A stretch of 32,000 nt of DNA from the NCBI GenBank assembly GCA_035509915.1, contig DATKIB010000065.1, forward strand, positions 17,508 through 49,507, written 5' to 3'. Shown here piece after piece: positions 1,819 through 32,000 of the stretch (its first letter is position 1; each line of letters begins with the position of its first letter). This DNA comes from Acidimicrobiales bacterium. Lineage in GTDB: Bacteria > Actinomycetota > Acidimicrobiia > Acidimicrobiales > UBA8190. The position numbers and the translations under genes are program-made. The notes under the pieces are model-generated. The model had not been told where the DNA came from, searched no databases, and saw only the letters and a program-made list of their open reading frames with translations.

Positions 1819-4305
<2,487 letters not shown>

Positions 4306-4335
4306 CCCATCCCGGGCGGGGCCGGCGCAGCCGAT

Positions 4336-4368
4336 GCAACGTCCCGCCGTCACCCCAGACGGCGTTGC
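4336..4368 (+). terminator. imperfect hairpin (gcaacg..ccgtc / gacgg cgttgc) downstream of clpC; weak terminator candidate
   Basis: Inverted repeat with a bulge, read from the sequence 30 nt after the clpC stop. No U-tract. Confidence 0.25.
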
Positions 4369-4470
4369 TGCGGTGCCCGATGCACCTCGGCGTCCCATGG
4401 TCCCGATGATCACGTTCCTGCGGTGACGGTCCACGTGCCGAAGGTCCCAGGTCGCACTGCGAATTCGGCG

Positions 4471-12184: not shown

Positions 12185-12194
12185 GTTCAGCCCC

Positions 12195-13936: not shown

Positions 13937-13965
13937 TTGACGCGTCGTAGTGGTGAGTGTACTTT
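13937..13965 (+). promoter_or_regulatory. candidate promoter TTGACG-N17-TACTTT upstream of the FHA-PrsW gene
   Basis: Hexamers read from the sequence in the divergent intergenic region, about 70 nt upstream of ATG 14035. Confidence 0.3.
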
Positions 13966-14034
13966 CGCGCCGAAGAGTTAGACAGGCCCGGGCTGGGGCG
14001 GCTCTCTCGAGGCCTCCGACTGGGAGGGAAGAAG

Positions 14035-15417
14035 ATGAGCGTCGTCGACGGAGGCGCAGCCCCACCTGCGCCCGGCCAGAGCGTTCCCCCCGTGGCCCCG
14101 GGCACAATCACGATCCACCACGGCCGGCACCGGTTCGTGCTCCAGCCCGGGCAGGCAGCCAAGGTGGGGAGCGGGCCGGCCAACGAGGTCGTGGTCAGTG
14201 ACCCACGCGTCTCGGCCACGCACCTGTTCGTCAGCTGGAGCCCACAGGGTTGGGTGCTCGACAGCGTGGGCACTGGCGGCACGTACATGTCCGGTCAGCT
14301 CGTCACCCGCGTGCTTCTCACACACCCGGTCGAGGCGCGTCTTGCGGCTCCGGACGGACCCCTCGTCCACTTCGAGCCGGCAGTCACAGCACCCTCTGCC
14401 GGGGTACCGGCGAGTACGGTGCAAGGCGCTTTAGCGAAGGCCGGTCTCGGGCACCACAATGGCCAGTGGGCCTCGACGCCAGAGCTCGAGGAGCTGTCCA
14501 CCGCGCTCAAGATCCTCGTCCCGATCCGAAGCTGGTTGAAGAACCCCAGCTGGCACAAGGGGCTCAGGCTTTGCGTGATCCCCTACGCCTTGCTGCCGCT
14601 GTCTTTCATCGCCCTCTTCGCCGGCTCGGGCAACCTCACGACGCCCGGATGGGCCTACAGCCTTTACGTAGCCCCCTTGTGGCTGGTGGCCTTCTGGTAC
14701 CTGATCCGCCCCGGCACGATCACGAGACAGGAGGTGGTCATAGGCGCCATCGTGATCGCCTGGGTCCTCACGTGGATGAAGCTGGTCACGATCCACATCA
14801 ACGACCATCTTGCCGGTGCAGGCCAGTCGTTGACGTTCATCAAGGCCATCGGAGTCGGGTTCAACGAGGAGATCACCAAAGCGCTCCCTGTGCTCATCCT
14901 CGCCGTGGTGCTCATGAAGTTCCGCTCTACGAGGCTCGACGTCCGGATGTGGATGTTCATAGGCACCATCGCTGGACTGACGTTCGGCGTGTACGAGGCG
15001 ACCAGCTACACGGTCGGCGCCATCGTCAGCATCCACGCCGCAACCGGCAACAACGGGGCGGTCGTTGCTAGCCTCGAGTTCGCTTACCGAGTGTTCGTGG
15101 ACGGGTTCCAACACGCCGTGTGGGCCGGCATCTCGTGCTTCTTCGTCGGGATGGCGATCAACCACCGACGCCGGGGAGTGCAACTGATCCTCGTCGGTAT
15201 CGTGATCGCGGCTGTCCTGCACGGGGTGAACGACTGGATCGCTCCTGCGGTAAACAGCCTCTGGGCGCAGGTGGCCGTCGAGGCCGTGTCGCTGTTCCTC
15301 TTCTTCGGCTACTCGATGTCTGCCCGTGACATCGAGCTCGAAGTACAACAGAACCCCGTGTTCGAAGAGCAGCCGAAAGCGAATACTCAGCAGTCCCAGC
15401 CGACTCCCACCACCTAG
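14035..15417 (+). CDS. FHA domain fused to a PrsW-like polytopic intramembrane protease domain
   Basis: ATG 14035 preceded by GGGAGG. FHA landmarks are present (GR, VSATH, GGTYMSG). The membrane domain has PrsW-type motifs (NEEITKALPVL, GLTFGVYEATSY, FQHAVWAG, LHGVNDW). Confidence 0.75.
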   Translation: MSVVDGGAAPPAPGQSVPPVAPGTITIHHGRHRFVLQPGQAAKVGSGPANEVVVSDPRVSATHLFVSWSPQGWVLDSVGTGGTYMSGQLVTRVLLTHPVEARLAAPDGPLVHFEPAVTAPSAGVPASTVQGALAKAGLGHHNGQWASTPELEELSTALKILVPIRSWLKNPSWHKGLRLCVIPYALLPLSFIALFAGSGNLTTPGWAYSLYVAPLWLVAFWYLIRPGTITRQEVVIGAIVIAWVLTWMKLVTIHINDHLAGAGQSLTFIKAIGVGFNEEITKALPVLILAVVLMKFRSTRLDVRMWMFIGTIAGLTFGVYEATSYTVGAIVSIHAATGNNGAVVASLEFAYRVFVDGFQHAVWAGISCFFVGMAINHRRRGVQLILVGIVIAAVLHGVNDWIAPAVNSLWAQVAVEAVSLFLFFGYSMSARDIELEVQQNPVFEEQPKANTQQSQPTPTT

Positions 15418-17352: not shown

Positions 17353-20300
17353 GGTACAAGGCCTGCTCGGTCGAGGTCAGGTCGCGGGTGATCCGTCCGT
17401 GAGCGGCCTGTTCGAGCTGGGGAAGAGGCATGGCCCCGGAGGTCGACCACAAGCGCGCGACCCCGTCGTTACCTGCCGTCAGGATCTCAGTACCATTCGA
17501 ATTGAACGCGGCGCTGTTGACTGCTCGTGGGTTCGGCCGAGGGGTTGGCCCGAACACCGCCAGTTGCGAGCCCGACGCCACGTCCCAGATGCGAACGGCT
17601 CCGTCGTCTTCGGACGTGACTATCTGTGTACCCTGGGGATTGAACACAGCCGTGTTGAGCTGACCGGTCGAGGCGTTCATGGGGGGCTTGGCGGGCCGGA
17701 TCGTGTGGCCCGGAGAGCAGTCGGCGGTGTCGAAGACGGCGACGTTGCCTGCGTTGTCCGCTGTCACGACCAGATCTCCCTTGAGGTCGAATTGACCGTC
17801 CCACATCACTGCATCAGGGTCGGGACCCTGGAGCAGGCACGGATGCTCGCTGGGATGGGCGGTGTTCCACATGAGAGCCTGCCCGCTCTGATAGGAGACG
17901 AGCAGGTGGGCCTGCGACTGGTCGAAGGCGATGGAGTTGACTATCCAGTCCGTGGAATCGTCGTAAACCTGGTTGTAATGACACGGAAAATCGAAACTCT
18001 TCGGGCACGACAATTTGATCTGCTTCCCGGTGTTCAAATTGTACAAGTGTACGAGGTAGTTGGTGTCGACGATACCGATCCAGGTCTGCTTCTGGCTCAC
18101 GGCAACCGCGTCGACGTCACTGAGCAGGGTCTTGGGCGACCCCGAAATCGACTGAAGGGTCGCCGTGCTGTTGTCGATGGTGACGATTTGGTTGGGATCG
18201 CCCGGGACCAATGCGAACGCGTAGCCAGCGTAGCTGGCGCGAAGTTTGAGCGTCCTGAGATCCCAGATCTGGACTTGCGACTGGTTCGAGGCGGTCGCCA
18301 CCAACGCGACCTCGTGGTTGCCTGTCCCCGGTACAAACTGCGCGCTGCCCAGTTCTTCGGATCCCGGAGGCACGACCTGCCCGACCAGCTGTCTCGGCAG
18401 AGTGTCCCAGAGCTTCACGGTGTGGTTCTCGTTGCCGGTCACGAGTCGTGGCGCCCCCGTGGGGTCGAATCCGACGGAGTAGATGACACCGCAGTCGCAG
18501 TCCAGCTGAGCGACCTGGTCGCCGGTGCTCGAGTCCCACACGGTCGTCTGTCCGAGGTCGTTGACCGTCGCGAGCTCACTGCCGTCGGAGTTGAAGGTCG
18601 CCGCAATCGTGTCACCGACCGTGTCCAGCGCGTGTAGCTGCGCTGGTGGGGAGCTCGTGACGTCCCACAAGAGCGTCTTCCCGTCGGCGCTTGTAGTAGC
18701 CACCTCAGTCCCGGAGGGGGAGAAGACCGCGTCGGTCATTACGTTGGAGCCGATCGTCGCCAATTGGGTCAAGCTCGGCACCGACCACAAGATGGCACCT
18801 GTGTTGTACGAGAGGGTGACGAGCATGGTGCCGGCGCCGTTGTAAGAGACCGGGCCATAGGAAGGGGTAGCTACGGAATTCGGGGGAGTGCAACCGATCG
18901 CTGCGCCCGTCACCGCATACTCGCAGAGCTGGTCGTTGGTGTCCTCGGTGGCGAAGCTCTTGCCGTCCGGATCGAAGGCGACGTAGTCGATGCCGTAGCC
19001 GTTGCTGGGGTCGTCGCTAATGGCGATGTTCGAGCCGTGGGTTTCCGCTCCCGCCGAGGTCATCGTGAACATCGTCACGTAGCCGTTTCCTTCTGCGACG
19101 GCGAGCTTGGTACCGGCTGGGTTGAAGGCAACCTCATTCGGGTCGGCGCCCCTCGGTGTGGACAAGATCGACGGGGGCGAGGACGGATGGTGAGTGTTCC
19201 AAAGCTCCGCGATATCGATGGCCTTTGTATAAGCGACTGCTGCCACGTAGCTGCCGTCCGGGCTGTAGGCGACGGAATAGACCGAGCCGCGGGCCTGGAG
19301 CGAAGTGAGCTCCTGAGTGCTGCCGAACGCCTGGCGGAGCGCGTTCTGGGCCTCGGGGGTGACGCTGGTCGTGACGGCCTGCAAGGCGAGATTGGTGCTC
19401 AGCTCGGGGTCGCTGCCGAGGTTGCTCACTGCGCTGGCGGCCAGCTGGCGCGACTTCGCCGCGTCGCTCTGAGAGCCCACGTCCCACAGCAGCCCTCCCA
19501 CGACGACGAGCACGACCAGGACCGCCACCGTCCGCCAGTTGCGTGCGCGGCGTCGCTGCGTGCGCGCCTCGCGCTCTGCCCTCTGCTTCTCCCGTTCGGC
19601 CCGAGCAGTGGCCTGCTTGCTACGCCAGTCCAAGATGGCGGAGGCGAGCACGTCGTGGAAGATCTCGAAGCGGGGCGGCTCTTCGACACCGGGAGGCGGG
19701 GGGACGTGGCGGACGATGCGTGAAGGCTGGAGCTTCTCGAGCAGCGCCTCGATCGGCGCTTGCTCATCGGGCCGCTCCGTCAGGCCGCTGAGGTCCTTTG
19801 CCGTTAGTGCGATCTTGGTGCCCGATGGCGTGACGAGCTGCTTGAAGACGTCGGTGGCGATGTCACGTTCGTCCTGCGACAGGCCGTCGAGGGTCGTCGC
19901 GAGGTGCGTGCTCACGATCTGCTGGGCGCCGCCGAGGTCTTCCAGCGTCTTCAAACGCAGGTTCGTGGACCCCGAGTCGACCTCCGCCTGCCAGAGCTTG
20001 CTCATGACCAGTTGGAGGTACGGCGCTTCGAACGCGTCGCCCGCCGCACCGTCCAGAGTGCCCGCGCCCTCCTGGTCCAATCTCACTCGGCCCGCGCGCA
20101 CCTGCTCGAGGACGGTCTCGACGAGAGCCGGCTCCCAGCCAACCTGAGGCTCCCCGGGCCGCCGGCGGTTGAACTCCTCGATGGGGCCCACGATCGCCTC
20201 GCGTGCGGCGGCCTTGCCGAGCGGGTTGACGCGACGCAGCGAGTCGAACAAGGCAGGGGTGCGGTCCTTGAACCGATCGAGCTGCGCCAACGCGTCCTCA

Positions 20301-20878
20301 CGTATCGAGACCAGGAATCCCGCCGGCAGGCCGGGGCGGTTGACGGCCGGGGGGAACTGGGCGAAGAACGTGTCGTCGCCTTCCTCGGCGCCGTGGTAGA
20401 GGAAGTACTCCTCGAACTGGTCGAGGATCACGAGGAGGGCAGCGTCGAGCTGCTCGGTGGCGGCCTCCACGACCTCGATCAACTGACCTTCCGCTGCGAA
20501 GTCGCGGCCGGAGAATTCCCTCGTGGCATCCGCGATGGAGCGGGTGAGCGAGCCCAGCGGGTCGTCTCGCCAAGTGCTGAAGACCACCGGCACGAATTCT
20601 GGAGAGCCGATCGCCTCCTGGTTCTCGTGCGCGAGCTCCCTCAGTCGCGACGCGACACCCGCTCGCAACAGCGAGCTCTTGCCCACCCCGCTCTGGCCGT
20701 ACACGACTGTCAGCCGGCGTGCTTTCAGGTTGGAGATGATCAGGTCCCGCTCGCGTTCGCGACCGAAGAAGAAGGCGGAGTCGTCCTCGGTGAAGAACGT
20801 CAGGCCCTTGTACGGGCTGGTCGCGCCTGTGGCGTCGGGCTCGGGACTCGTCCGTGGTCCCGCTTCGGTGGTCGTCAC
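17336..20878 (-). CDS. STAND-class P-loop NTPase with a central transmembrane helix and about 14 WD40-like beta-propeller blades (1180 aa)
   Basis: YKGLTFFTEDDSAFFFGRERE lead-in. Walker A GQSGVGKSS (20672-20698) and Walker B LLVILDQFEE. Arg-rich stretch then NWRTVAVLVVLVVVGGLLWDV (about 19484-19540). Recurrent blades such as VAFNPAGTKLAVA, AVFSPSGTEVATTSADGKTLLWDV and AVFNPQGTQIVTSEDDGAVRIWDV. Confidence 0.85.
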   Translation of the reverse strand: MTTTEAGPRTSPEPDATGATSPYKGLTFFTEDDSAFFFGRERERDLIISNLKARRLTVVYGQSGVGKSSLLRAGVASRLRELAHENQEAIGSPEFVPVVFSTWRDDPLGSLTRSIADATREFSGRDFAAEGQLIEVVEAATEQLDAALLVILDQFEEYFLYHGAEEGDDTFFAQFPPAVNRPGLPAGFLVSIREDALAQLDRFKDRTPALFDSLRRVNPLGKAAAREAIVGPIEEFNRRRPGEPQVGWEPALVETVLEQVRAGRVRLDQEGAGTLDGAAGDAFEAPYLQLVMSKLWQAEVDSGSTNLRLKTLEDLGGAQQIVSTHLATTLDGLSQDERDIATDVFKQLVTPSGTKIALTAKDLSGLTERPDEQAPIEALLEKLQPSRIVRHVPPPPGVEEPPRFEIFHDVLASAILDWRSKQATARAEREKQRAEREARTQRRRARNWRTVAVLVVLVVVGGLLWDVGSQSDAAKSRQLAASAVSNLGSDPELSTNLALQAVTTSVTPEAQNALRQAFGSTQELTSLQARGSVYSVAYSPDGSYVAAVAYTKAIDIAELWNTHHPSSPPSILSTPRGADPNEVAFNPAGTKLAVAEGNGYVTMFTMTSAGAETHGSNIAISDDPSNGYGIDYVAFDPDGKSFATEDTNDQLCEYAVTGAAIGCTPPNSVATPSYGPVSYNGAGTMLVTLSYNTGAILWSVPSLTQLATIGSNVMTDAVFSPSGTEVATTSADGKTLLWDVTSSPPAQLHALDTVGDTIAATFNSDGSELATVNDLGQTTVWDSSTGDQVAQLDCDCGVIYSVGFDPTGAPRLVTGNENHTVKLWDTLPRQLVGQVVPPGSEELGSAQFVPGTGNHEVALVATASNQSQVQIWDLRTLKLRASYAGYAFALVPGDPNQIVTIDNSTATLQSISGSPKTLLSDVDAVAVSQKQTWIGIVDTNYLVHLYNLNTGKQIKLSCPKSFDFPCHYNQVYDDSTDWIVNSIAFDQSQAHLLVSYQSGQALMWNTAHPSEHPCLLQGPDPDAVMWDGQFDLKGDLVVTADNAGNVAVFDTADCSPGHTIRPAKPPMNASTGQLNTAVFNPQGTQIVTSEDDGAVRIWDVASGSQLAVFGPTPRPNPRAVNSAAFNSNGTEILTAGNDGVARLWSTSGAMPLPQLEQAAHGRITRDLTSTEQALYHAAAN

Positions 20879-20915
20879 GCCAATCCGGCTTCGAAGGTGG
20901 TCACCGTGGCAGCGC

Positions 20916-21932
20916 TCAGGCTGCCCCAGCCTGCTCCGCGAGGAAGGTGTCGAATGCCGCGCTGAGTCCCTCCAGGTAGTCCTCTAGCGGGGTGTCGCGC
21001 ATCTCGACGCCATGGTGCCGCCAAGACGCCCGCTCGACGTCCGAGCAATCTCGCTGGATCGACCACCAGGAGTTCTTCCCCTTGTTGCTGTCGTACAGCT
21101 CGTAGAGGATTGCGCGGAGGTTCCAGTCGTGGAGGCTGTAGCCCAAGAAGAGTAGGTGGCAGTTGTTGAGGCGGACCATCACGTCGGTGGGCAGGCGGTC
21201 CCGCAGGTCGGCACGCCCTGAGCGCCCTTCCCGGCCCAGGTACTCGATGTAGTGGTCCTCGGTTATCACGTAGCTGTCCTGGTCAGGGTCAGACTTGTTG
21301 ACGAAGCCGTGGAGCTTGACGATGACCGTTCTAGTGTCCGGGTTCACCGCGTCGTAGTCCTCGGGCTTCTCGATCAAGGTGAGATCACCATCGGGCGACT
21401 GGTGGAGGAAGCAGCCCTTGTCGGCTCCCTCCGCTACGTAGGCGACCAGGTCGAAGGGCTCGCCCTGGGTGCTGAAGGCTTTTTCGAGCAGGTCGTCGTA
21501 GTTGGTGGTGACTATGAGCGGAGGGCGGCGCAACTTGCCCGCCTCGCGCAACCGGCCGGGCACCGAGGCGAGGAACTCGTGGAGCTTGGTGGTCGGGAGC
21601 TCGCGGTTGAAGACATCGTGCAACGCGAAGTAGAGGGGTGAGGACCCGCCCTGCATGGTGGCGATCCACTGCGCCACCTCCAGCAGGTTGGTCGGGGAGC
21701 TCTCCATGTCGAACTCCCTTGCAAGATGGACTGCCAGCTCCGACGAGCTCGGGGGCCCGTGCCACTCATCGCTGTCGGGAGGGCGGCCGAACAGACTCGC
21801 GCCGGCGCCGAGGACGGGAGTGAGGTTCCCGTTCTTGAACCCGCGGCACACCATCTTGTAGTGCAGCGACAGTTCCCCTGCCACCGCCGTCCTGCCAGGG
21901 TCGTCGGTCTGCGCAAAGGCCATTCGATCCAC
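20916..21932 (-). CDS. SIR2_2-family (Thoeris ThsA/DSR-like) NAD-utilising domain protein
   Basis: LTPVLGAGAS, LIVTTNYDDLLEKAF (Asn codon 21501-21503), VIVKLHGF (His codon 21309-21311) and LLFLGYSLHDWN. No Zn-ribbon module of classical sirtuin deacetylases. Start is GTG 21932 or ATG 21923, both with GGAG upstream. Confidence 0.8.
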   Translation of the reverse strand: MDRMAFAQTDDPGRTAVAGELSLHYKMVCRGFKNGNLTPVLGAGASLFGRPPDSDEWHGPPSSSELAVHLAREFDMESSPTNLLEVAQWIATMQGGSSPLYFALHDVFNRELPTTKLHEFLASVPGRLREAGKLRRPPLIVTTNYDDLLEKAFSTQGEPFDLVAYVAEGADKGCFLHQSPDGDLTLIEKPEDYDAVNPDTRTVIVKLHGFVNKSDPDQDSYVITEDHYIEYLGREGRSGRADLRDRLPTDVMVRLNNCHLLFLGYSLHDWNLRAILYELYDSNKGKNSWWSIQRDCSDVERASWRHHGVEMRDTPLEDYLEGLSAAFDTFLAEQAGAA

Positions 21933-22997: not shown

Positions 22998-23296
22998 CTG
23001 ATCCCGCAGATCGGCAACGCCTCCCGACGCTGCACAGCGAAGAGGAGCCCCGCCTCGACAAGCACGACGACCAGCTCGACGATCGCGAGCGCCGGGAAGG
23101 GTCCCATGGGGCGTTCGAGGAGGGGGAACAGGACGAGGAAGCCGATCGGGTGGGACACGAGATTGACGCCCGCACCGGCTGCTAGCCCCTGCGGCATCGG
23201 AGTCGACTGCATGACGCGCAGCAGACAGGCGTACACAGGGGCTTCGATGACCACTGTCAAGCACAGCGCGAGGAGGTACGCGCTCTGGTGCGTCAC
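22946..23296 (-). CDS. hypothetical small polytopic membrane protein (116 aa)
   Basis: Strong GC3 bias and 3-4 hydrophobic segments. Its start lies 1 nt after the stop of the upstream gene. Its 3' end overlaps the convergent hydroxylase gene by 52 nt. No family recognised. Confidence 0.5.
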   Translation of the reverse strand: MTHQSAYLLALCLTVVIEAPVYACLLRVMQSTPMPQGLAAGAGVNLVSHPIGFLVLFPLLERPMGPFPALAIVELVVVLVEAGLLFAVQRREALPICGISYVANVASFSLGVLLLR

Positions 23297-23297
23297 G

Positions 23298-23588
23298 CTA
23301 CTGGCGCGGCCGCCAGGCCCAGCCGTCCCATACCCAGCGCCCGTCCGGAGAGACCTGCCCGGTGGGGTTCGCCGCTCTCGCCAACCGAGCGGCGCCGTCG
23401 TACGACTGCTTGCGCTTCCTGTACCGGAGCAGGAGCCCCAGGACCACCAACGCGACGAGCACGAGTATCACGACGAAGAGGACGAGCAGTGTGGAGCTCC
23501 CCCCTCCGAGTGGGTTGGGAGATCCTCCGCCGGGTGGAGGTGCAGGTATGTCGGCGAGCAACCCTGCGAACAGCCCTAACAGACCCAC
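23298..23588 (-). CDS. small single-pass membrane protein with C-terminal SPDGRWVWDGWAW motif (96 aa)
   Basis: GTG start and a hydrophobic core (LLVLFVVILVLVALVVLGLLL) followed by RYRKRK. The C-terminal motif is the same as the repeats in the upstream gene. Confidence 0.55.
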   Translation of the reverse strand: MGLLGLFAGLLADIPAPPPGGGSPNPLGGGSSTLLVLFVVILVLVALVVLGLLLRYRKRKQSYDGAARLARAANPTGQVSPDGRWVWDGWAWRPRQ

Positions 23589-23595
23589 GACCTAA

Positions 23596-23601
23596 ATTCT
23601 A
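23596..23601 (-). promoter_or_regulatory. TAGAAT -10-like hexamer 7 nt upstream of GTG 23588 (possible leaderless internal promoter)
   Basis: Minus-strand TAGAAT read from attcta at 23596-23601. The spacing to the start codon fits leaderless transcripts, which are common in Actinobacteria. No -35. Confidence 0.25.
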
Positions 23602-23613
23602 CGTTGACGTCCG

Positions 23614-24228
23614 CTAGCGGCCGGTCTTCTGCCATGCCTGTCCGTTCCAGACCCAGTGGCCGTCGGCGGACACCGGCATGCCGGCGGCGATGAGGGACTT
23701 CACTCCAGGGTCCAGCTCACCGGCAGAAGCCGGGCTCTTCGCCGCTTCGGCCTCGGCCGGCTGCCAGGCCTTCCCGTCCCACGCCCAGCGCCCGTCTGCA
23801 GAGAGGAGGCGGGTGCCGCTCGACTCGGGCGCCTGCGGTGCCACCGGCTGCCAGGCCTTCCCGTCCCAGCGCCAATGACCGTCGGCCGAGATCGGATGCT
23901 CCTCAGGCGGTGCAGGTGGGGCGGCGGGTGTCGCGGGCGCGGGAGCGGCGTGCGGCACCCACTTCGCACCGTCCCAAATCTGTGTGCCGTCGGGAGAAAG
24001 CGGGTGGGACGCATCGGGCTGCGGTGCAGCAGCAGTCGATTCCGCAGCAGTCGGTACAGCGGCAGCCTTCGAAGTCGCCGTCTCTGCGTTCGGCGCACCG
24101 GTCGGCGGTGCGGATACGGGGTTCCATTTGTCGCCGTCCCAGACCCAATGACCGTCGTCGCTGACCCAGCGGTGCTGTTCGTCCTGCCGCATCGACGTCT
24201 CCATTCGTTCACGAGCGCTCATGGTCAT
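23614..24228 (-). CDS. repeat protein: five copies of a roughly 15-aa [SD]xDGxWxW[DN]GxxW motif separated by Pro/Ala-rich linkers
   Basis: SDDGHWVWDGDKWNP, SPDGTQIWDGAKWVP, SADGHWRWDGKAWQP, SADGRWAWDGKAWQP and SADGHWVWNGQAWQK. Start assigned to ATG 24228, because the track ORF up to 24480 would overlap the divergent gene. The second half of the motif resembles the RYWDGxxWT core of DUF2510 (from memory only). Confidence 0.6.
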   Translation of the reverse strand: MTMSARERMETSMRQDEQHRWVSDDGHWVWDGDKWNPVSAPPTGAPNAETATSKAAAVPTAAESTAAAPQPDASHPLSPDGTQIWDGAKWVPHAAPAPATPAAPPAPPEEHPISADGHWRWDGKAWQPVAPQAPESSGTRLLSADGRWAWDGKAWQPAEAEAAKSPASAGELDPGVKSLIAAGMPVSADGHWVWNGQAWQKTGR

Positions 24229-24256
24229 CTTGCGCCAAACATGCAGTATACGGAGG

Positions 24257-24285
24257 TTGTTTTGTACTTGGGTGTGTCTTATAGT
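24257..24285 (+). promoter_or_regulatory. candidate promoter TTGTTT-N17-TATAGT in the locally AT-rich divergent intergenic region
   Basis: Hexamers read from the sequence, about 63 nt upstream of ATG 24348. Confidence 0.4.
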
Positions 24286-24347
24286 TTTTCCGTTACTGGT
24301 CGATTGAGGTGGGCGATTCCCACGAGCACGTGGCCGAAGGGGGCCGG

Positions 24348-25487
24348 ATGATCTGTTTCCGCTGCTCGACGCCGAACCCGGAGGTCGCCCGGTTCTGCCA
24401 CCACTGCGGGGCCGTGCTCGTGCCCGAAGCTGACAGGGCCGACTACTACGCAGCCCAACCGGCGGAGTCGGTGCGTGCACTGGCTCTGGTCAGTACGTTG
24501 ATGCCGCACGCGTCGGCGAACAGGCACCACATCTACCGCCTCGGGCTCGTGTTTGCGGTGGGCGCGGCGCTCGTGGCGGCGGGCTTCGGCATCCTCCCGG
24601 TCGCCCTCGTATGTGCTGGGGTGGCACTACCGGGCATGCTCCTCACCTATTTCCACGACCACGAGGTCTGGAGCGACGAGCCCGCGATAGTCATCGGCGC
24701 GTGTGTGTTCCTCGCAGCCGGAATCGGTGTCGGCGTCGGGTTTCTGGCGAACCTGTTCAGCAACAGCGGGCTGCTCGTCACGATCAACAATGCTCTTCCC
24801 TCGACGGGCCGGTTACTCGAGGAGTGCCTGCTGCTGCCGGCAGTGGCGTTCGTCGCTCTCCAGATCGCACCTAGCCTCGTCACGTCCCGGGAGAAGTTCC
24901 GCCACGCCCTCGACGCTCTCACTCTCGCGGCTCTCGGTGGAGTGGCTTTCGCTCTGGCGGAGTCGATCGTCATCCAGCACGGAGCCTTCTCGAGCTTGAC
25001 GGTCCACAACACCAACGCGGCTACCGACGCCTTCGTGGCTCTCACCCTGGGCTTCGTGAAGCCGATCATCTACGCGACGGCGGCAGCGGTCGCTGTGATG
25101 CGCATGCGCGGGGGCGCCAACAGCTACCTCACCGGACTGGTCGAAGGCTTCCTCCTCGTGGCCATCTATGACACCTCTGTTGCGACCCTCACCTCCTACG
25201 GGCAGCGCGGCGTAGTGCTCACCTTCCTCATCGCAGCCGCGTTGGCGTCGGTGGGCCTGCTCTCGGTCCGCAACGAGGCCCATGGGGCGTTGCTCCAAGA
25301 GGCGGAGCAGGCGGCTGGCATCGCAGAGCCCGGCGGGTTCGGCGGCTTCTGTGCCAATTGCCAGCTCCCTCTGCTCGCGGGCGCGGCGTTCTGTCTGGCC
25401 TGTGGCACGGCCGTAGCGGCGATGCCGAAGCAGCACCAGCGCAGTCTCGCCTCGTCCTCCGGCTCCTCCTCCGACCTGTCCGCCTGA
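24348..25487 (+). CDS. polytopic membrane protein (about 8 TM) flanked by N- and C-terminal CxxC-N9/10-CxxC zinc ribbons; distantly PrsW-like
   Basis: ATG 24348 preceded by GAAGGGGG. CFRCSTPNPEVARFCHHCG and CANCQLPLLAGAAFCLACG. LLEECLLLPAV and LDALTLAALGGVAFALAES resemble the PrsW EE and GF..E motifs, but the His motifs are absent. Confidence 0.7.
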   Translation: MICFRCSTPNPEVARFCHHCGAVLVPEADRADYYAAQPAESVRALALVSTLMPHASANRHHIYRLGLVFAVGAALVAAGFGILPVALVCAGVALPGMLLTYFHDHEVWSDEPAIVIGACVFLAAGIGVGVGFLANLFSNSGLLVTINNALPSTGRLLEECLLLPAVAFVALQIAPSLVTSREKFRHALDALTLAALGGVAFALAESIVIQHGAFSSLTVHNTNAATDAFVALTLGFVKPIIYATAAAVAVMRMRGGANSYLTGLVEGFLLVAIYDTSVATLTSYGQRGVVLTFLIAAALASVGLLSVRNEAHGALLQEAEQAAGIAEPGGFGGFCANCQLPLLAGAAFCLACGTAVAAMPKQHQRSLASSSGSSSDLSA

Positions 25488-25518
25488 TGGCGCCGAAGAA
25501 CCCGACTGGAGCGCTTCG

Positions 25519-26421
25519 ATGACATCGACGTACGAACCGCCTCCTCCGCCTCCGCCGCCACCGTCGGAGGGTGGTCCTGCGGTCCCTTCGGTGGCGTACC
25601 CGCCGCCTCCGCCTCCCCCGCCGCCCAGCGCGCCACCCGGGGCGCCGGGTGCACCCCCGAGCGGCTGGACCGGTCTTCAAGGCAAGATCCCCAACCGCAG
25701 GATCGCCGCGTTCGCGGGCGGCGGCGTTGCGGTTGTGGGCGGGATAGTCGCGTTGATCGTGCTCCTCGGTTCCGGGCCGAAGCCCACACCCCCCCCAACC
25801 CCTCTTCCCACGACCCCTCCCACGACCCCGGCCACGACCCCGAGCACGACACCCTCCACCACACCGAGCACGACGCCCTCAACCAGCCCGAGCACCACAC
25901 CCTCGACCACACCGAGCACCACGCCGACAACGTCTCCCCCGCCCTCCTCGTCGGCGGGAGCGGTCCCGCTCGGGAACGGGCTGAGCGTGAGCCCTGCGAG
26001 CGGCTGGACCGCCAACTGCAGCAACTGCAGCAGCGGGTCCACGGACTTCTTGAGCCCCGACCAGACGTCGGACGTGTACTACGAGGGCCTCAAGCAGACG
26101 TCGTCCAACCCACTCAACGACCTCGTGCAGGGCGTCTCGACGGGCCAGAACGCCTCGTTCTCGAACTTCCAGGGAGGTACCCCGACCAACAGCTCGCTCA
26201 ACTCGAACCCGGCCGGGTTCGGCGAGTTCTCCTACGAGGCCTTCCAGGGAACTGTCAGCACCAACCAGGGCACTCAACAGTTCTACGGAGTCTTGGGAGT
26301 GTTCTGGAACTCGAGCAGCGGTTACGAGGTGTTCTTCGTCTATGAGGCCACCAGTCAGAGCTCGGTGCAGAGCAACCTCAACAGCCTCAATACGATGAAC
26401 GACTCGGTCGTGGCAAGCTGA
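25519..26421 (+). CDS. single-pass membrane protein: polyproline N-terminus, TM anchor, Pro/Thr/Ser linker, roughly 160-aa Ser/Asn-rich extracytoplasmic domain
   Basis: GGAG 8 nt upstream of the ATG. Two runs of nine consecutive Pro codons (25537-25563, 25600-25626). TM IAAFAGGGVAVVGGIVALIVLLG. (TTPS)n linker. Confidence 0.7.
   Translation: MTSTYEPPPPPPPPPSEGGPAVPSVAYPPPPPPPPPSAPPGAPGAPPSGWTGLQGKIPNRRIAAFAGGGVAVVGGIVALIVLLGSGPKPTPPPTPLPTTPPTTPATTPSTTPSTTPSTTPSTSPSTTPSTTPSTTPTTSPPPSSSAGAVPLGNGLSVSPASGWTANCSNCSSGSTDFLSPDQTSDVYYEGLKQTSSNPLNDLVQGVSTGQNASFSNFQGGTPTNSSLNSNPAGFGEFSYEAFQGTVSTNQGTQQFYGVLGVFWNSSSGYEVFFVYEATSQSSVQSNLNSLNTMNDSVVAS
25778..25950 (+). repeat. short tandem coding repeats (acSacSccSagc-type) encoding a (T-T-P-S/T)n linker
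   Basis: Visible periodic 12-nt units encoding PTTPPTTPATTPSTTPSTTPSTTPSTSPSTTPSTTPSTTPTT. Confidence 0.7.
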
Positions 26422-26486
26422 CGACGCTCGGCCAGGGTGAAGGCCCTTCGGGCCCGCAGTTATCGTGCCCGTACTGCGGCGAGACT

Positions 26487-27563
26487 GTGCCCGCCGGGGC
26501 ATTCTGTGGGAACTGCGGCGCGCACCTCTCGGATGCCGGTGGGCGCGCACGGCTCCACCATTACGCGGCATCTCCTAGCGAGCACGTGCTTCGGATCGCG
26601 GTCATCTCGACCTTCTTCCCGCACCTGCCCAGGAGGCACGCGCATCTCTTTCGGGAGACCTTCACGATCGGCTTGCTGGTGGTGGTGCTGCTGGCCGCTC
26701 TCCGCCTGTACGCGCCCGCCTTGATCGCTGCGGCAGCACTGCTACCGATCCTCTACGTCCTCTACCTCTACGAGGTGGAGGTCTGGGAGACCGATTCGGT
26801 CTCCGTCCTGCCGGCCACCCTGGGCCTGGGCGCGGCACTCGGGGTTGGCTACAGCCTCGGTTTCGGTCAGGTGGTGACGGTGGGTTTGGGCGGTCCGCGT
26901 CAGGGAGCGGCGTTCAGCGGCGTCCTCCTGCCGGTGGTCTCGCAGCTGCTCATGATCGTGGGCCCGCTCCTGCTGCTCGGGCGGGTCCGCTTCGACGAAG
27001 CGCTCGACGGGCTGAGCTTCGGGATCACGTCCGCCTTAGGGTTCACCTTTGCGTCGGTGATCGCGGGGTACTGGCACACCCTCACCGCGCCGCTGTTCGG
27101 ATCAGGAAGCATCTCGACCGAGCAGATCGCAGGCATCGCACGCGCTGCGATCCTGGCCGGAGTGGTAAACGCCGCCACTACGGGGATCGTCACCTCGAGC
27201 CTGTGGCTGCGCCGCCACGGCCGCTCGCGCAAGCGTCACGACCACGTCCTTCTCCGATTGCCCGCCGCCGTCGTGATCGCGTTCGGTTTCCAGATCGCAT
27301 TGGGCATCGTGACGTACTTCGTGACGTCTCTGCTGCTGGTGGTGATCCTCTGGGCGATAGCCGCCGCCGCGTTGCTCGTGTGGGTGCGTATCACCGTTCA
27401 CCACGCACTACTGGAGGAGGGCGCAGAGCACGTGATCGGCGAGGCCTCGGCCTGTCCCGAGTGCCACCTGCTCGTGCCGACCATGTACTTCTGCCCGGCT
27501 TGCGGGGCCGCGCGGTCGGCGGTGCCCAAGCACAGCCGACCGCCGATCGGGGCACGGGCGTGA
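26487..27563 (+). CDS. paralog of 24348-25487: double zinc-ribbon polytopic membrane protein (PrsW-like motifs further degenerated)
   Basis: FCGNCG..., HHYAASPSEHVLRIAVISTFFPH (compare YYAAQPAESVRALALVSTLMPH in the paralog) and C-terminal CPECHLLVPTMYFCPACG. The true start is probably upstream of GTG 26487, because the in-frame CPYCG (26466-26480) completes the ribbon. See findings. Confidence 0.7.
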   Translation: MPAGAFCGNCGAHLSDAGGRARLHHYAASPSEHVLRIAVISTFFPHLPRRHAHLFRETFTIGLLVVVLLAALRLYAPALIAAAALLPILYVLYLYEVEVWETDSVSVLPATLGLGAALGVGYSLGFGQVVTVGLGGPRQGAAFSGVLLPVVSQLLMIVGPLLLLGRVRFDEALDGLSFGITSALGFTFASVIAGYWHTLTAPLFGSGSISTEQIAGIARAAILAGVVNAATTGIVTSSLWLRRHGRSRKRHDHVLLRLPAAVVIAFGFQIALGIVTYFVTSLLLVVILWAIAAAALLVWVRITVHHALLEEGAEHVIGEASACPECHLLVPTMYFCPACGAARSAVPKHSRPPIGARA

Positions 27564-28255
27564 CGTCGCTCTCGTACAGCTATCCGGTGGTCGGCGCAGG
27601 GTCCGTCCCCGGAGCGAGGCAGAAGCTTCCGCACACGCGCTTCCTCGCGATCGCCGGCGTGGGCCTAGGCGTCCTGGTGATAGTCATCACCGCTGTCGTC
27701 GTGCTCGTAAAGCCCGGCGTCCAGTCCTGTCACTTCACCTGCGGTCCCGACGTGGGTCCGAGGCTTGTGAGTCCTACTTCCTTCACTAGCTCCGAGTTCG
27801 GATACAAGGTGGAATACGACAGCGGCTACTTCAAGCAGAGCAACGCGACCAAGTCCGGTGCCGAGTTCGACCTGACGATCGGGGGCGGTGGCATCCTGGT
27901 CTTCAAGGCCGAGTCGGGTAGCGACGTCAACGGTGCCGTCGACAGCCTCGTCAACAGCATCAGCTCCAACGAGATCCAGAACCTCCAGGAGATCGAGCCC
28001 GTACCCGGAGCCGAGATCGGCGAGGTGGAGGGCTCGGGGACAGCGTTCTCGGGCACGTTCGTCCCGCAGGGCGGGGGACAGACCGTTCCCGTCTCGGTGG
28101 TTGCGATGGCAGCTTCTTCGCACGGTCTCACGATCGGCGTCCTCGCGATCGATCCGCAGGACCTGAGCTCGGTCCAGACGCTGCCGCTCGGGTTCGCGGA
28201 CGGTGCGTTCCTCGACGCTCCGATCACCGACACGATCTGGCCTGGACAGAGCTGA
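27560..28255 (+). CDS. single-pass membrane-anchored extracytoplasmic protein (231 aa), positional analog of 25519-26421
   Basis: GTG 27560 overlaps the upstream stop (GTGA). TM FLAIAGVGLGVLVIVITAVVVLV. Its stop overlaps the ATG of the S53 gene (TGATG). The track ORF from 27203 is an over-extension. Confidence 0.65.
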   Translation: MTSLSYSYPVVGAGSVPGARQKLPHTRFLAIAGVGLGVLVIVITAVVVLVKPGVQSCHFTCGPDVGPRLVSPTSFTSSEFGYKVEYDSGYFKQSNATKSGAEFDLTIGGGGILVFKAESGSDVNGAVDSLVNSISSNEIQNLQEIEPVPGAEIGEVEGSGTAFSGTFVPQGGGQTVPVSVVAMAASSHGLTIGVLAIDPQDLSSVQTLPLGFADGAFLDAPITDTIWPGQS

Positions 28256-29955
28256 TGGTGGTCGCACGACGGACCACAACGGTCCTCGCGGTCAGCCTCA
28301 TCGCCGTGCTGTCGTGCTCGGTCCAGGCCCTCGCAGGCACGCCAGCGCGGCGCCCGGCGGCGGGCACCTCGAGTTCGCTCCCGTCCCTCGCTGTCGCTGT
28401 GCACGAGGCGACCGACCTGGGTCCGTTGCCCTCGGGGGTGCGGGTCGGGCTCACGTTCGCCCTGCGCGAACGAGACCCGTCGGGCCTCCAGGCACTCCTG
28501 GATCGCGGGGGGAGGCTGACGCCAGCGCAGTTCGCCTCGACCTACGGGCCCGCCCCCACTCTCGTCGCTTCGGTGCGAGGGGTACTTGCTCGCGAGGGGT
28601 TGTCGTCGCAGTGGGAGCCGGGCGAGACCTTGATGTCGGTCACGGGCTCCGCGGCGGCTGTCGAGCACGCCCTCGCGCTGCAGATCCATCGCTTCGTCCT
28701 CCGCGGCTCGACTCGCTTCTACGCCCCGCTCACCACCCCCGAGCCGCCGAAGGCGCTCTCCAAAGAGGTTGTCGCGGTGACCGGTGCCGACGACTACCCG
28801 AGCCAGCTCACTGCAGCGAGCTCCAGCAAGGACGGGCTCACGCCGAGCCAGATCGCGAGCTTCTACGACCTCACGCCCTTGCGTTCGGCGGGCCTCGACG
28901 GCAGCGGGATGACGGTCATGTTCCCCGAGTTCGCCGTACCCGGCACGTCGGTGCTGTCGGCCTACGCGTCGAAGTTCGGGCTGCCACCCTTCGACGTGAC
29001 CGTGCACACCAACCCGAGCTGGGGACAACCCGCCGCCTCCACCAGTGAGGCGTCGAGCGAGGCCGCCCTCGACCTCGAGATCGTCCACGGCTTGGCGCCC
29101 GGTGCCAAGGAGGTCGTCTACGAGCTCGGGGACGCGACGGATCTGCCGCAGGTAGTGCAGGCCATGGTCGCCGCCAACCGTGGTGCGGTCCTGTCGAGCA
29201 GCGTAGGTGTGAACGCCTGCGAGGCCACCTCCGGCGCCCGCCAGTACTCGCTGGAGATCAGCTCGGCATTCGCGCAGGCAGCGGCGGAGGGCACCTCCAT
29301 CTTCTGGGCGTCCGGTGACCGCGGTGCATTCAGCTGCCTGCCGACCGGAGACGCCTCCACCGAGCAAGAGGTGTCCGTCGGGGTCGAGGCCGACAGCCCC
29401 GACGTCACCGCGGTCGGCGGGACGACGGTCTTCCTCGGCTCCAACGGCGCGTACTTCAAGGAAGCCTCCTGGGGGGAGCCGCTCGAGACCTGGGGCAGCG
29501 GCGGCGGGATCAGCACGATCTTCCAGCAGCCCTCCTGGCAGGTGGCTCCCGGTCTAGCCGCCGGCAGCCTGGGCGGACGGGGGGTGCCGGACGTGGCGGC
29601 CAACGCCGACATCGTCTCGGGTTGGGACACCTTTTCCCCGGGACAGAACGGTACTGAGGAGGGACCCGTGGGCGGGACCTCCGCGGCCACGCCCTGCTGG
29701 GCTGCGATCACGGCGCTCATCGACGAGGACCTCGCACAGCTGGGCCTTGCGGCGGTGGGCTTCGCCAATCCGACGCTCTACTACTTCTCACACGATCCCT
29801 CGGGTCTGCCCGCCGTCCCGTTCCACCAGGTGAGCGAGGGGAGCAACCTCCACTTCCTGGCGACGGCGGGGTGGAGCCCCGCGACGGGCCTTGGCAGCCC
29901 CGACGCGGCGCACCTCGCGGACGACTTCGAATGGTACGACCGCAACACGAGATGA
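28255..29955 (+). CDS. secreted sedolisin/kumamolisin-type serine-carboxyl peptidase (MEROPS S53) with pro-kumamolisin activation domain
   Basis: Signal peptide (VLAVSLIAVLSCSVQALAG) and prodomain pattern. E-x3-D (SEAALDLE), SGDRGA and GGTSAATP catalytic signatures are present. Confidence 0.85.
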   Translation: MVVARRTTTVLAVSLIAVLSCSVQALAGTPARRPAAGTSSSLPSLAVAVHEATDLGPLPSGVRVGLTFALRERDPSGLQALLDRGGRLTPAQFASTYGPAPTLVASVRGVLAREGLSSQWEPGETLMSVTGSAAAVEHALALQIHRFVLRGSTRFYAPLTTPEPPKALSKEVVAVTGADDYPSQLTAASSSKDGLTPSQIASFYDLTPLRSAGLDGSGMTVMFPEFAVPGTSVLSAYASKFGLPPFDVTVHTNPSWGQPAASTSEASSEAALDLEIVHGLAPGAKEVVYELGDATDLPQVVQAMVAANRGAVLSSSVGVNACEATSGARQYSLEISSAFAQAAAEGTSIFWASGDRGAFSCLPTGDASTEQEVSVGVEADSPDVTAVGGTTVFLGSNGAYFKEASWGEPLETWGSGGGISTIFQQPSWQVAPGLAAGSLGGRGVPDVAANADIVSGWDTFSPGQNGTEEGPVGGTSAATPCWAAITALIDEDLAQLGLAAVGFANPTLYYFSHDPSGLPAVPFHQVSEGSNLHFLATAGWSPATGLGSPDAAHLADDFEWYDRNTR

Positions 29956-30026
29956 CCCCCGCCGAGGCGACCCCTGCCTGCTGTGCGTCGATACAGGGCC
30001 ATGCTTGAACGAAGCGCCGATGAATC

Positions 30027-30074
30027 GACCGTTTCGTGAGACAGGGCGCTGACCGTTTCGTGAGACAGAGCGCG
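30027..30074 (+). repeat. tandem direct duplication of a 24-bp unit (gaccgtttcgtgagacagRgcgcK) 17 nt upstream of the second S53 gene; possible operator
   Basis: Copy 1 at 30027-30050 and copy 2 at 30051-30074 differ at 2 of 24 positions. Read directly from the sequence. Confidence 0.6.
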
Positions 30075-30090
30075 GAACCAAGGCGGCGGG

Positions 30091-31875
30091 TTGGCGCCGG
30101 TTAGCCGCGGAAGGCTCGGCGTCGGCTGGCTACTGGTTGGTGCGTTGTTGGTCCTCTCAGGGTGGGTCGTGGCGGGCCAGGAGTGGGCCTCGGCGCGGGG
30201 GACGGCTTCTGGCGGGGCGCGTGGCATGGGCTCGGCCGGCACGACCGGCTCGCTTCCTTCCCTGGCCGTTGCCGAGCGGGAAGCGAGCGACGTCGGCCCC
30301 CTGCGTGGCGGCGCTCAGGTGGGCTTCACCCTCACGTTGCGAGACCGCGCCAGCGCGGGTCTGGCAGTCCTTCTCGGACGGGGCGGCCGAGTCACACGTG
30401 CGGAGTGGGACTCCACGTACGGGCCCGATCCTTCGGCCGTGGGGGCCACGAGGACCCTGCTCGCGGCCGCAGGGTTGTCGTCAACGTGGACGCCCGGAGA
30501 CCCCCTCCTCGGAGTCACGGGTCGCGCGGAATCGGTCGAGAGCTTCCTGCACGTGGAACTAAGACACTTCGTCCTGCACAGCGGGGCCAGTTTCTACGCC
30601 CCACTCAGAGCGCCGGTTGCGCCGTATGCGATCCGGCAGGAGGTGAGCGCTGTGACCGGTCTCGACGACTACCCGGCCCACCTGGCATCGGCCATACCTC
30701 ACAGTGAGTACGGGGTATCGCCGAGCGAGATGACGAGCTTCTACGACTTGTCGCCGCTGCGGGACGCGGGTATCGACGGCGCCGGAGAGACGGTGATGTT
30801 CGTCGAGGCGGCGATGCCTGCCGCGTCGGTGCTCGCGGCCTACGCCTCGAAGTTCCACCTCCCACCCTTCGACGTGAGCGTGGTCAAGGATCCCGCCAGC
30901 TGGGGGAAGCCCGACACCCCGACGACCGGCGGCTACTCGGACGACGCCGGTGAGGCTTCGCTGGACCTCGAGATAGTCCACGGCCTTGCTCCCAGCGCGA
31001 AGGAGGTCGTCTACGAGTTCGGTGACGACTCGAAGTTCCCGGTGATGATCCAGGCGATGATCAGCTCCAACCCCGGTGCGATCCTCTCGAGCAGCTACTC
31101 GATGGCCGATTGCGAGGAGTCCCCCGGCGGGCGCGCCGACGCTCTCGCGCTCGACGCTGTCTTCGAGAAGGGGGCAGCCGAGGGGACCTCGATCTTCTTC
31201 GCCTCGGGGGACAGGGGCGCCTACGCGTGCCTGCCTGACGGTGAGCCGTCCACCGAAGGGATGCTCTCGGTCGACCCTGACGTGGACAGCCCCTACATCA
31301 CCGGAGCCGGTGGGACGACGGCGTTTCTCGCGTCGAACGGCGCCTACTTCAAAGAAGCCTCCTGGGGGGAGCCGCTCGAGACTTGGGGCAGCGGAGGCGG
31401 GATCAGCACGATCTTCCAGCAGCCCTCCTACCAGCGGGCGCCCGGACTGGGTCAGGGGAGCCTGGCCGGGCGCGGGGTGCCGGACGTCGCCTGCGACGCC
31501 GACTCCACGGTGAGCGGATGGGACGTGTTCGAGCCGCCGGACAAGAGCCAAGGCGAGAACGGGCCCCAGGAATTCCCCGACGGTGGGACCTCTGCGGCGG
31601 CGCCCTGTTGGGCGGCCGTCACTGCTCTCGTCGACGAGGACCTCGCTGGCCTGGGCCTGCGATCGGTCGGCTTCGCCAACCCCGCGCTCTACTACTTCTC
31701 GCGCGACCCCACAGGGCTGCCCGCGACGGCGTTCCACCAAGTGACCCAGGGAAGCAACCTCCACTACCTGGCGACCCCGGGATGGAACGCGGCGACAGGG
31801 CTCGGTACACCTGATGCAGCGCATCTCGCCGACGACTTCGAGTGGTATGACCGCGAGCAGCCCGCAGGGGACTGA
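30091..31875 (+). CDS. second secreted sedolisin (S53) propeptidase, tandem paralog
   Basis: TTG start (the only start codon in the frame upstream of the signal-like segment GWLLVGALLVLSGWVVAG). GEASLDLE, SGDRGA and GGTSAAAP. Collinear with 28255-29955. Confidence 0.85.
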   Translation: MAPVSRGRLGVGWLLVGALLVLSGWVVAGQEWASARGTASGGARGMGSAGTTGSLPSLAVAEREASDVGPLRGGAQVGFTLTLRDRASAGLAVLLGRGGRVTRAEWDSTYGPDPSAVGATRTLLAAAGLSSTWTPGDPLLGVTGRAESVESFLHVELRHFVLHSGASFYAPLRAPVAPYAIRQEVSAVTGLDDYPAHLASAIPHSEYGVSPSEMTSFYDLSPLRDAGIDGAGETVMFVEAAMPAASVLAAYASKFHLPPFDVSVVKDPASWGKPDTPTTGGYSDDAGEASLDLEIVHGLAPSAKEVVYEFGDDSKFPVMIQAMISSNPGAILSSSYSMADCEESPGGRADALALDAVFEKGAAEGTSIFFASGDRGAYACLPDGEPSTEGMLSVDPDVDSPYITGAGGTTAFLASNGAYFKEASWGEPLETWGSGGGISTIFQQPSYQRAPGLGQGSLAGRGVPDVACDADSTVSGWDVFEPPDKSQGENGPQEFPDGGTSAAAPCWAAVTALVDEDLAGLGLRSVGFANPALYYFSRDPTGLPATAFHQVTQGSNLHYLATPGWNAATGLGTPDAAHLADDFEWYDREQPAGD

Positions 31876-31878
31876 ACC

Positions 31879-32000
31879 CATGCGTCGCGTCAAGACCGGC
31901 GCCTGCAGGACGGCCCCGCTCCTCCTGCTCGCCCTCGCGCTAGTGGGGTGGGTGACCCTTGCGCACGGGCCGGCCGGCTCTCCGGCCACGCGCTCCGTTC
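31879..32000 (+). CDS. 5' end of a further secreted protein (signal-peptide-like MRRVKTGACRTAPLLLLALALVGWVTLAHG); continues beyond the window
   Basis: ATG lies 3 nt after the S53 stop. The ORF is open to the window end with high GC3. Only 40 codons are visible. Confidence 0.4.

Follow-up and report, generated by a model that had tools for sequence, protein, structure and literature searches.

PrsW makes the site-1 cut in the anti-sigma factor RsiW, and in the iRhom-ADAM17 pair a pseudoprotease controls an active sheddase. Bacterial sedolisins (MEROPS family S53) are described as free secreted enzymes, and we found no dedicated membrane partners for them in the literature. TMEM147 and APH-1 have folds of the CPBP/PrsW superfamily, of which they are non-catalytic members (PMC6588880), and PrsW domains fused to zinc ribbons have been mentioned as probable signalling peptidases (Zhang et al., 2012; PMC3482391). 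Here we analysed positions 24348-32000 of a 32,000-nucleotide (nt) window from contig DATKIB010000065.1 of an Acidimicrobiales bacterium; all coordinates refer to this window unless another locus is named. The region encodes zinc-ribbon membrane proteins (called A), anchored partner proteins (B) and sedolisins (S53), and consists of two A-B modules related by paralogy (A1-B1 and A2-B2); A2-B2 lies within a sedolisin unit. A and B form a unit, and the A2/B2 subtype forms an obligate three-part unit with sedolisins. As judged from their sequences, the A proteins appear to have the PrsW fold without the PrsW catalytic set and are better described as putative pseudoproteases than as PrsW proteases.

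The region has a G+C content of about 65-70%, and all of its genes lie on the + strand. Its features are as follows.

24348-25487, +: A1, with a zinc ribbon, eight transmembrane (TM) helices and a second zinc ribbon; 379 amino acids (aa); from Pfam, the AlphaFold2 (AF2) model and the motif table.
25519-26421, +: B1, with a Pro-rich cytoplasmic tail, one TM helix, a Pro/Thr-rich linker and an ectodomain of ~160 aa; from the translation of the open reading frame (ORF).
26418-27563, +: A2, paralogous to A1 and likewise built of two ribbons around an 8-TM core; 381 aa from a probable CTG start.
27560-28255, +: B2, a PsbP/Mog1-like ectodomain borne on one TM helix, with CxxxC next to the membrane and a short conserved tail (SYPV) in the cytoplasm.
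28255-29955, +: S53a, a pro-sedolisin of the kumamolisin type with signal peptide, prodomain and catalytic domain; from Pfam and the match to 1t1e.
30027-30074: two tandem copies of the 24-nt repeat GACCGTTTCGTGAGACAGGGCGCT, the second 92% identical, in the spacer between S53a and S53b.
30091-31875, +: S53b, a second sedolisin-type peptidase, 62% identical to S53a; from Pfam.
31880-32000, +: S53c, a third sedolisin gene, present here with its 5' end (signal peptide) and encoding 583 aa on the source contig.

The order and strand that the initial annotation had given for A1, B1, A2, B2, S53a and S53b agree with the ORFs and the Pfam matches, and inspection of the junctions found the overlaps it had described between A2 and B2 (GTGA) and between B2 and S53a (TGATG). 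It had also listed a last ORF with a signal peptide; this ORF begins at 31880, and we identify it as the third S53 gene. For A2 the end at 27563 stands, while the start placed at GTG 26487 is probably wrong. The A2 frame is open 5' of this GTG and encodes there the first CxxC knuckle (CPYCGET); the sole start-like codon upstream in the frame is CTG 26418, which overlaps the stop codon of B1 (cTGA). One relative (L068, 67% identical) has an ATG at the same position with an ATGA overlap, its protein beginning MTT... where A2 begins LTT..., and the length of A2 counted from the CTG falls within the 380-383 aa of its relatives. We therefore place A2 at 26418-27563 with a probable CTG start, which completes the N-terminal ribbon, and GTG 26487, the first canonical start, would cut the first zinc knuckle. 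Since this start overlaps the B1 stop, B1 through S53a form one translationally coupled string. Between A1 and B1 lie 31 nt, with GGAG 8 nt 5' of the B1 ATG; the spacers S53a-S53b and S53b-S53c measure 135 nt and 4 nt.

Automated annotation departs from this layout at two genes. Gene callers start A2 downstream, and the first zinc knuckle is thereby lost from the annotation. In the source record the gene caller splits B1 (25519-26421; 5587-6331 in L063): of the gene itself only the last 123 aa are called (+ strand), and the Pro/Thr-rich linker is crossed by a spurious ORF of 121 aa on the opposite (-) strand.

A1 and A2 had been called clear paralogs, and full-length BLASTP (28% identity, E 2e-20) together with the YAA.P.E.V...ST..PH motif common to both proteins confirms it. 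A1 matches Zn_Ribbon_1 (E 3.5e-11) and DZR (E 3e-07) in Pfam and has a ribbon at either end; each end of an A protein carries the two CxxC knuckles of such ribbons (PF13240; DZR, PF12773), and the eight ribbon Cys are kept in 136-147 of the 148 full-length A-family representatives in which we counted motif columns. A word-indexed search with A1 found 59 homologs, all of them unnamed or named 'zinc ribbon domain-containing protein'. A profile search with the A family against 1.84 billion representatives matched 208 clusters at E<1e-30 and 659 at E<1e-10 (counted among 50%-identity representatives), and matches in genomes came from Mycobacterium (M. nebraskense, M. helveticum, M. interjectum and many metagenome-assembled genomes, MAGs), Frankiales, Acidimicrobiales, Pseudonocardiales and Jatrophihabitans. 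The A family thus comprises several hundred 50%-identity clusters in Actinomycetota. Its best-conserved features are cytoplasmic, namely the eight ribbon Cys, the motif AA.P.E...STL.P, whose P53 is invariant (148/148), and R308/H312/L315/E318 after the last helix. An A protein is probably an 8-TM member of the PrsW/CPBP superfamily with its strongest conservation on the cytoplasmic face, in the ribbons and two juxtamembrane motifs.

The relationship to PrsW, which the initial annotation had proposed, is supported at superfamily level. The PrsW family PF13367 (M82) matches ten of 40 longer A-family members (best P0180, 38.6 bits against a cut-off of 23.5 bits), and hhalign aligns the A-family profile with a Pfam-validated PrsW sequence over 178 columns at E 4.7e-5, placing EE opposite EE and GFATLEN opposite AFALAES. 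The query that we take to be B. subtilis PrsW matches PF13367 here at E 1.2e-34 and has EE75/76 and H175 at what are presumably their published positions. In the AF2 model of A1 (predicted local distance difference test score, pLDDT, 71.7; predicted template modelling score, pTM, 0.70) eight membrane helices lie between the ribbons. The top probabilities in a Foldseek search of this model against the PDB were those of TMEM147 (0.97 and 0.91) and APH-1 (0.92), with target-normalised TM-scores of 0.54-0.57 and E-values of 0.3 to 3; nothing in the PDB reached E<1e-3, and Rce1, which has the six-helix core topology of this superfamily in common with APH-1, was outside the top 50. APH-1 (in gamma-secretase) and TMEM147 (in the BOS/Nicalin-NOMO complex) are non-catalytic polytopic scaffolds with single-pass partners that have large ectodomains (nicastrin and nicalin), as in the pairing of A with B. 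Unlike A they are eukaryotic, lack zinc ribbons and have no detectable sequence similarity to it; the likeness extends to fold and logic and no further.

A and PrsW share a multi-pass core of eight helices and a set of non-catalytic motifs (Y..D....EP, F..xDG, GF...E and a Pro before motif 3), and the cytoplasmic fusion to zinc ribbons has been noted earlier in comparative genomics. Across the family the ...EP motif (P in 131/148), xDG (D189, nearly invariant in 143/148), GF...E (E in 82/148) and the Pro before motif 3 (P134, 139/148) are kept. The non-catalytic signature of PrsW, with xDG in the form xDG...G and ~8 TM helices, is thus matched by the hhalign alignment, these column counts and the A1 model. 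The catalytic His are lost, and usually the glutamates. A1 had been said to retain EE and GF..E without the PrsW His residues, and A2 to have lost the Glu as well; the motif table agrees, and shows A2 without both EE and the GF..E glutamate. In A1 the EE pair is at 158-159 and the GF..E glutamate is E206; motif 1 (EExxK/R, E75/E76 in B. subtilis PrsW) is present there as EE without the basic residue and is missing from A2, and of the 148 representatives only 32 and 19 have Glu in the two EE positions. The columns of PrsW H138 (motif 3) and H175 (motif 4, H175xxxD) contain Ala, Gly or an aliphatic residue throughout and His in 0/148, and no conserved His occurs anywhere in the membrane core of these 148 proteins. 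Hence, although fold and non-catalytic motifs are common to both, we do not class A as a PrsW protease. The family differs from PrsW further in having two ribbons, one per end, an obligate and often fused PsbP-like single-pass partner, an obligate link of A2 to S53, and no anti-sigma/sigma pair nearby.

A second PrsW-type protein is encoded ~9 kb upstream of A1 and A2 (13957-15417, +; 486 aa; PF13367 E 5.5e-16, FHA domain E 2.4e-6). This FHA-PrsW keeps every PrsW catalytic motif (EE..K, F...E, H and H...D) and is, from these motifs, apparently an active PrsW paralog; the catalytic loss is therefore specific to the A family.

The B proteins are single-pass proteins with the N terminus inside and the C terminus outside. 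Neither B1 nor B2 has a match in Pfam or NCBIfam or an anti-sigma domain, and their alignment profiles found nothing below E 1 among PDB sequences. B2 has 21 homologs at 41-59% identity which share the single TM helix and the juxtamembrane CxxxC, and its cytoplasmic tail is conserved, Y8 and P9 being invariant among them; a protein identical to B2 is on record from an Acidimicrobiales MAG. Five homologs carry an extra N-terminal cytoplasmic zinc ribbon (P0220-P0222, P0226, P0228). An N-terminal ribbon is also present on the B2 homolog at 1970-2752 of L070. The AF2 model of B2 is an alpha/beta sandwich with a pLDDT of 81 (>90 over residues 70-200), which in Foldseek matched PsbP (1v2b, E 2.9e-5) and Mog1 (E 7.6e-4), and further the Jonesia protein 3lyd, M. 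tuberculosis Mtc28, Apa and LpqN, DcrB, Tsi3 and the EagT6/SciW chaperones. On this model B2 can be assigned with confidence a PsbP/Mog1-like ectodomain on one TM helix, a fold typical of protein-binding scaffolds in the envelope. B1 has a Pro-rich linker in common with Mtc28 and Apa. Unlike the PsbP/Mog1-fold envelope proteins Mtc28, Apa, LpqN and DcrB, with which they have no sequence-level match, the B proteins are TM-anchored and paired with A rather than being lipoproteins or secreted antigens; they also differ from nicastrin and nicalin, whose fold is aminopeptidase-like and not PsbP-like.

The initial annotation had suggested that the two anchored proteins are akin. BLASTP of B1 against B2 found no similarity, and neither matches an annotated family; what stands is a relation between the ectodomains in profile comparison, where hhalign gave E 4.6e-6 (probability 86.5%) when the alignments were large and E 8e-5 (61%) when they were small. 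B1 and B2 are thus probably remote homologs of the same fold, as far as the profiles tell. The B1 ectodomain is a separate family, with 93 matches after iteration against 35 for B2 among the sequences collected here, and domains of its type are found 3' of A1-type genes in ~40 loci.

Both S53a and S53b match the pro-kumamolisin activation domain (Pro-kuma_activ, PF09286) and Peptidase_S8 (PF00082). S53a aligns over its full length with pro-kumamolisin 1t1e (E 5.9e-34), and its SEAALD, SGD and GGTSAA motifs align with kumamolisin E78/D82, D164 and S278; the same residues are present in S53b. S53a is accordingly predicted to be catalytically intact. The activation domain, the Glu/Asp/Ser triad and the oxyanion Asp are what S53a to S53c share with sedolisin and kumamolisin, and they differ from the described bacterial sedolisins in the adjoining genes for candidate membrane partners and in a clade-specific Cys pair near SGD. 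This pair flanks the SGD region (~322 and ~361 in S53a) and is common to S53b, L065 and P0153, where kumamolisin is gapped; its position in the alignment suggests a clade-specific disulfide loop near the sedolisin active site.

Linkage of these genes in other genomes, on which the proposal of a joint system had been made to depend, is borne out by A2-type loci, A1-type loci and fusions alike. A metagenome scan seeded with A2-type proteins yielded at least 416 relatives (A2-type loci from soil and peat metagenomes), and 80 loci were kept. An S53 gene stands beside A2 in 67 of the 80, and all 13 exceptions end <340 nt upstream of A2; where there is room on both sides, S53 and B2 genes accompany A2 in every case (40/40). 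These A2-linked loci span 45-70% identity. The commonest order is S53-A2-B2 (60 loci), and the order found in the window, A2-B2-S53, occurs in seven, three of which have A1-B1 upstream, two of these three with three S53 genes. Since two gene orders exist, mere synteny is an unlikely cause of the association of A2/B2 with S53. In the genome loci seeded with A1, a B1-type gene then follows in most, and every A2-type gene adjoins S53 and B2-type genes. A and B are moreover fused in 40 of the 148 representatives, always with B C-terminal; P0180, an A-B2 fusion, starts 1 nt after an S53 gene. In P0153, found on contigs of two samples, A (18-404) is followed by a TM helix (422-445), B2 (450-641) and an S53 catalytic domain from ~676, which is 36% identical to S53a 181-556 and has intact catalytic motifs. 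It has no prodomain, and B2 occupies the position where the prodomain usually lies. Neither the catalytic degeneration of this clade nor its obligate PsbP-like partner nor its S53 link was found described in the open-access literature, though absence there is not proof, and no paper with PrsW was among the top results for PrsW combined with sedolisin, S53 or kumamolisin.

The model that we favour, with moderate confidence, for the A2-B2-S53 unit is a pseudoprotease scaffold, A, with a surface partner, B, that docks or chaperones the sedolisin, the ribbons serving as cytoplasmic input. By the logic of topology the B ectodomain and S53 would lie outside the membrane and the ribbons inside. A would grip the TM helix and tail of B within the membrane, much as the related folds APH-1 and TMEM147, on which we model this step, hold nicastrin and nicalin. 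The B2 ectodomain would then dock the sedolisin after export, or its proenzyme, on the outer side of the membrane, and the docked enzyme could be retained at the surface, chaperoned or activation-gated by B2, or both; the place that B2 takes in P0153, where the prodomain would be expected, points to docking, chaperoning or gating of this kind. The ribbons of A, the conserved B2 tail and the extra ribbon of some B2 homologs may couple the complex to a cytoplasmic partner or signal. By analogy with iRhom-ADAM17, an inactive relative of an intramembrane protease with a cytoplasmic regulatory extension would here be tied genetically to an active extracytoplasmic protease; the two pairs do not share their folds, a rhomboid and a metalloprotease standing on one side and PrsW and a serine-carboxyl peptidase on the other. 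A stronger version, possible but doubtful, would be a bacterial counterpart of iRhom/ADAM17 or APH-1/nicastrin with inside-out control of extracellular proteolysis, in which the PrsW-fold pseudoprotease and its PsbP-like partner capture the sedolisin and switch its activation or release on a cytoplasmic cue read by the ribbons. In P0153 and other fusions lacking a prodomain, B2 would then stand in for that domain in trans.

Several points weigh against the scaffold model. A1 and A2 themselves have no PF13367 match at E up to 1, and their membership of PrsW therefore holds only by transitive homology; the E-values of the Foldseek matches to the A1 model are poor. The A-family profile gave no significant hhalign match to the FHA-PrsW of the window (E 0.39), for which reason the PrsW link is to be read at superfamily level and is carried by the B. 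subtilis-type PrsW, the Pfam matches of other members and the fold. The S53 proteins of the window have signal peptides and prodomains of their own and thus no obvious need of a chaperone. A1-B1 modules occur without S53 nearby, for instance among housekeeping genes in Mycobacterium, so the A-B pair must have a function beyond sedolisins; the mycobacterial A1-B1 neighbourhoods contain housekeeping genes only and offered no candidate partner. Nor was a cytoplasmic partner of the A zinc ribbons found, and it is we who infer that A, B and S53 bind physically and that the role is one of tether, chaperone or regulator.

The best surviving alternative, which we regard as unlikely, is regulated-proteolysis signalling, in which the sedolisin has taken over the site-1 cut of PrsW and cleaves the B ectodomain or linker presented by an inactive A, the remaining stub or the ribbon face of A signalling inward. 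The PrsW ancestry of A fits this, as do the N-in/C-out single-pass topology of B, which is that of anti-sigma factors, and the long Pro/Thr-rich linker of B1 as a possible substrate; also in its favour are the cytoplasmic elements as the most conserved parts of A, the conserved B2 tail with its invariant Y8 and P9, and the cytoplasmic zinc ribbon of some B2 homologs. Against it, the genes flanking the module in the window and in relatives include no conserved sigma factor, transcription factor or site-2 protease; the adjacent pair of extracytoplasmic function (ECF) sigma and anti-sigma factors and the site-2 protease pathway that mark PrsW-RsiW-type systems were not found there, and B lacks an anti-sigma domain. 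The P0153 fusion, in addition, would tether the protease permanently to its own substrate.

That A1 and A2 are still active intramembrane proteases, using other residues to process B or the sedolisin precursors, is quite improbable. In its favour are the GF..E glutamate kept by A1-type proteins (82/148), the EE found in some members and the nearly invariant D189; CPBP-type enzymes, besides, are thought to depend on glutamate and not on metal (PMC6588880). The membrane core, on the other hand, has no conserved His, with both PrsW His columns replaced in 148/148; most members lack EE, A2 lacks the GF..E glutamate too, and the canonical PrsW of the same genome retains all motifs.

We consider it very improbable that A serves its partners as a conduit for export or insertion, an idea which follows the 'PrsW-dependent export' suggested for PrsW-fused polymorphic toxins, where PrsW domains were proposed to form a channel-like passage for cargo fused to their C terminus (Zhang et al., 2012; PMC3482391). 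B, and S53 in P0153, are indeed always C-terminal to A in fusions, but the fused cargo has its own TM helix in front, placed after the cytoplasmic zinc ribbon, and the free sedolisins have ordinary signal peptides, so that Sec/YidC suffices; moreover, the PrsW versions fused to zinc ribbons were set apart from the toxin-linked ones (PMC3482391). A neighbourhood due to inherited synteny only, with unrelated functions, is scarcely credible, for although local synteny does exist (the SIR2/STAND and W-repeat neighbours described below are common to close relatives only), it is already contradicted by the link in 40/40 loci at 45-70% identity and in two gene orders, by the start/stop overlaps and by the repeated gene fusions.

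Elsewhere in the window, a DisA (diadenylate cyclase) gene at 4423-5517 (+) and a branched-chain amino-acid ABC transporter operon at 8791-13854 (-) form an ordinary chromosomal context. At 17336-21932 (-) a SIR2_2 protein (ThsA-like in PADLOC, E 3.3e-14) adjoins a 1180-aa nSTAND1 NTPase with WD40 beta-propellers, a combination that looks like a defence or conflict-system pair; the pair is also upstream of A1 in L068, and a SIR2 homolog stands there in L005. A1, B2 and S53a themselves had no match to the anti-phage defence models of PADLOC. A 192-aa protein of S.DG.W.WDG..W.P repeats with weak WXXGXW and DUF2510 matches is encoded at 23614-24192 (-), next to a 96-aa TM protein (23298-23588, -) that ends in one copy of the repeat. 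In Frankiales-type relatives only (L003/L004, L006-L008), A1 has the 192-aa protein as its divergent neighbour upstream, and we rejected this protein as a component of the system because it is common to the closest relatives only. A TrkA_N protein with a RyR domain is encoded at 15430-17352 (-), and in L001 a small RyR-domain protein (4115-4585, -) lies between the S53-A2-B2 and A1-B1 modules; this recurrence may be a coincidence. Beside S53/A2/B2 in L003 (12029-15216), L007, L008 and L069, and partly in L010, L017 and L023, there is a polytopic protein of 819-820 aa, which in the first four loci is adjoined by a lipoprotein-like protein of 243-254 aa; neither has a Pfam match, and both are absent from this window. 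As to control elements, the 24-nt tandem repeat at 30027-30074 is possibly a regulatory site. Rfam over 23000-32000 gave a single sub-threshold chance match and none on the repeat; scanning for sigma-70 promoters gave no match, and the terminator-like sites numbered no more than chance would give.

The large, uncharacterised A family, with its PrsW fold, lost catalytic residues and strong conservation, looks like a clear case of a bacterial pseudoprotease. Its obligate link to sedolisins, otherwise viewed as free secreted acid peptidases, provides it with a testable partner. For annotation, the gain lies in genes that are now labelled 'zinc ribbon domain-containing protein' or 'hypothetical protein', and in B1, which is mis-called in the source record. 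The A-B-S53 module is widespread, closely conserved and so far without annotation; its components have known folds, and its mechanism is our inference. What the conserved gene set of these soil actinobacteria points to is a platform in the membrane by which an extracellular protease is held or controlled. Should the scaffold or tether model prove true, it would account for the retention or control of extracellular proteases at the membrane of monoderm and mycolate bacteria, and would provide a prokaryotic parallel to the eukaryotic pseudoprotease-protease pairs.

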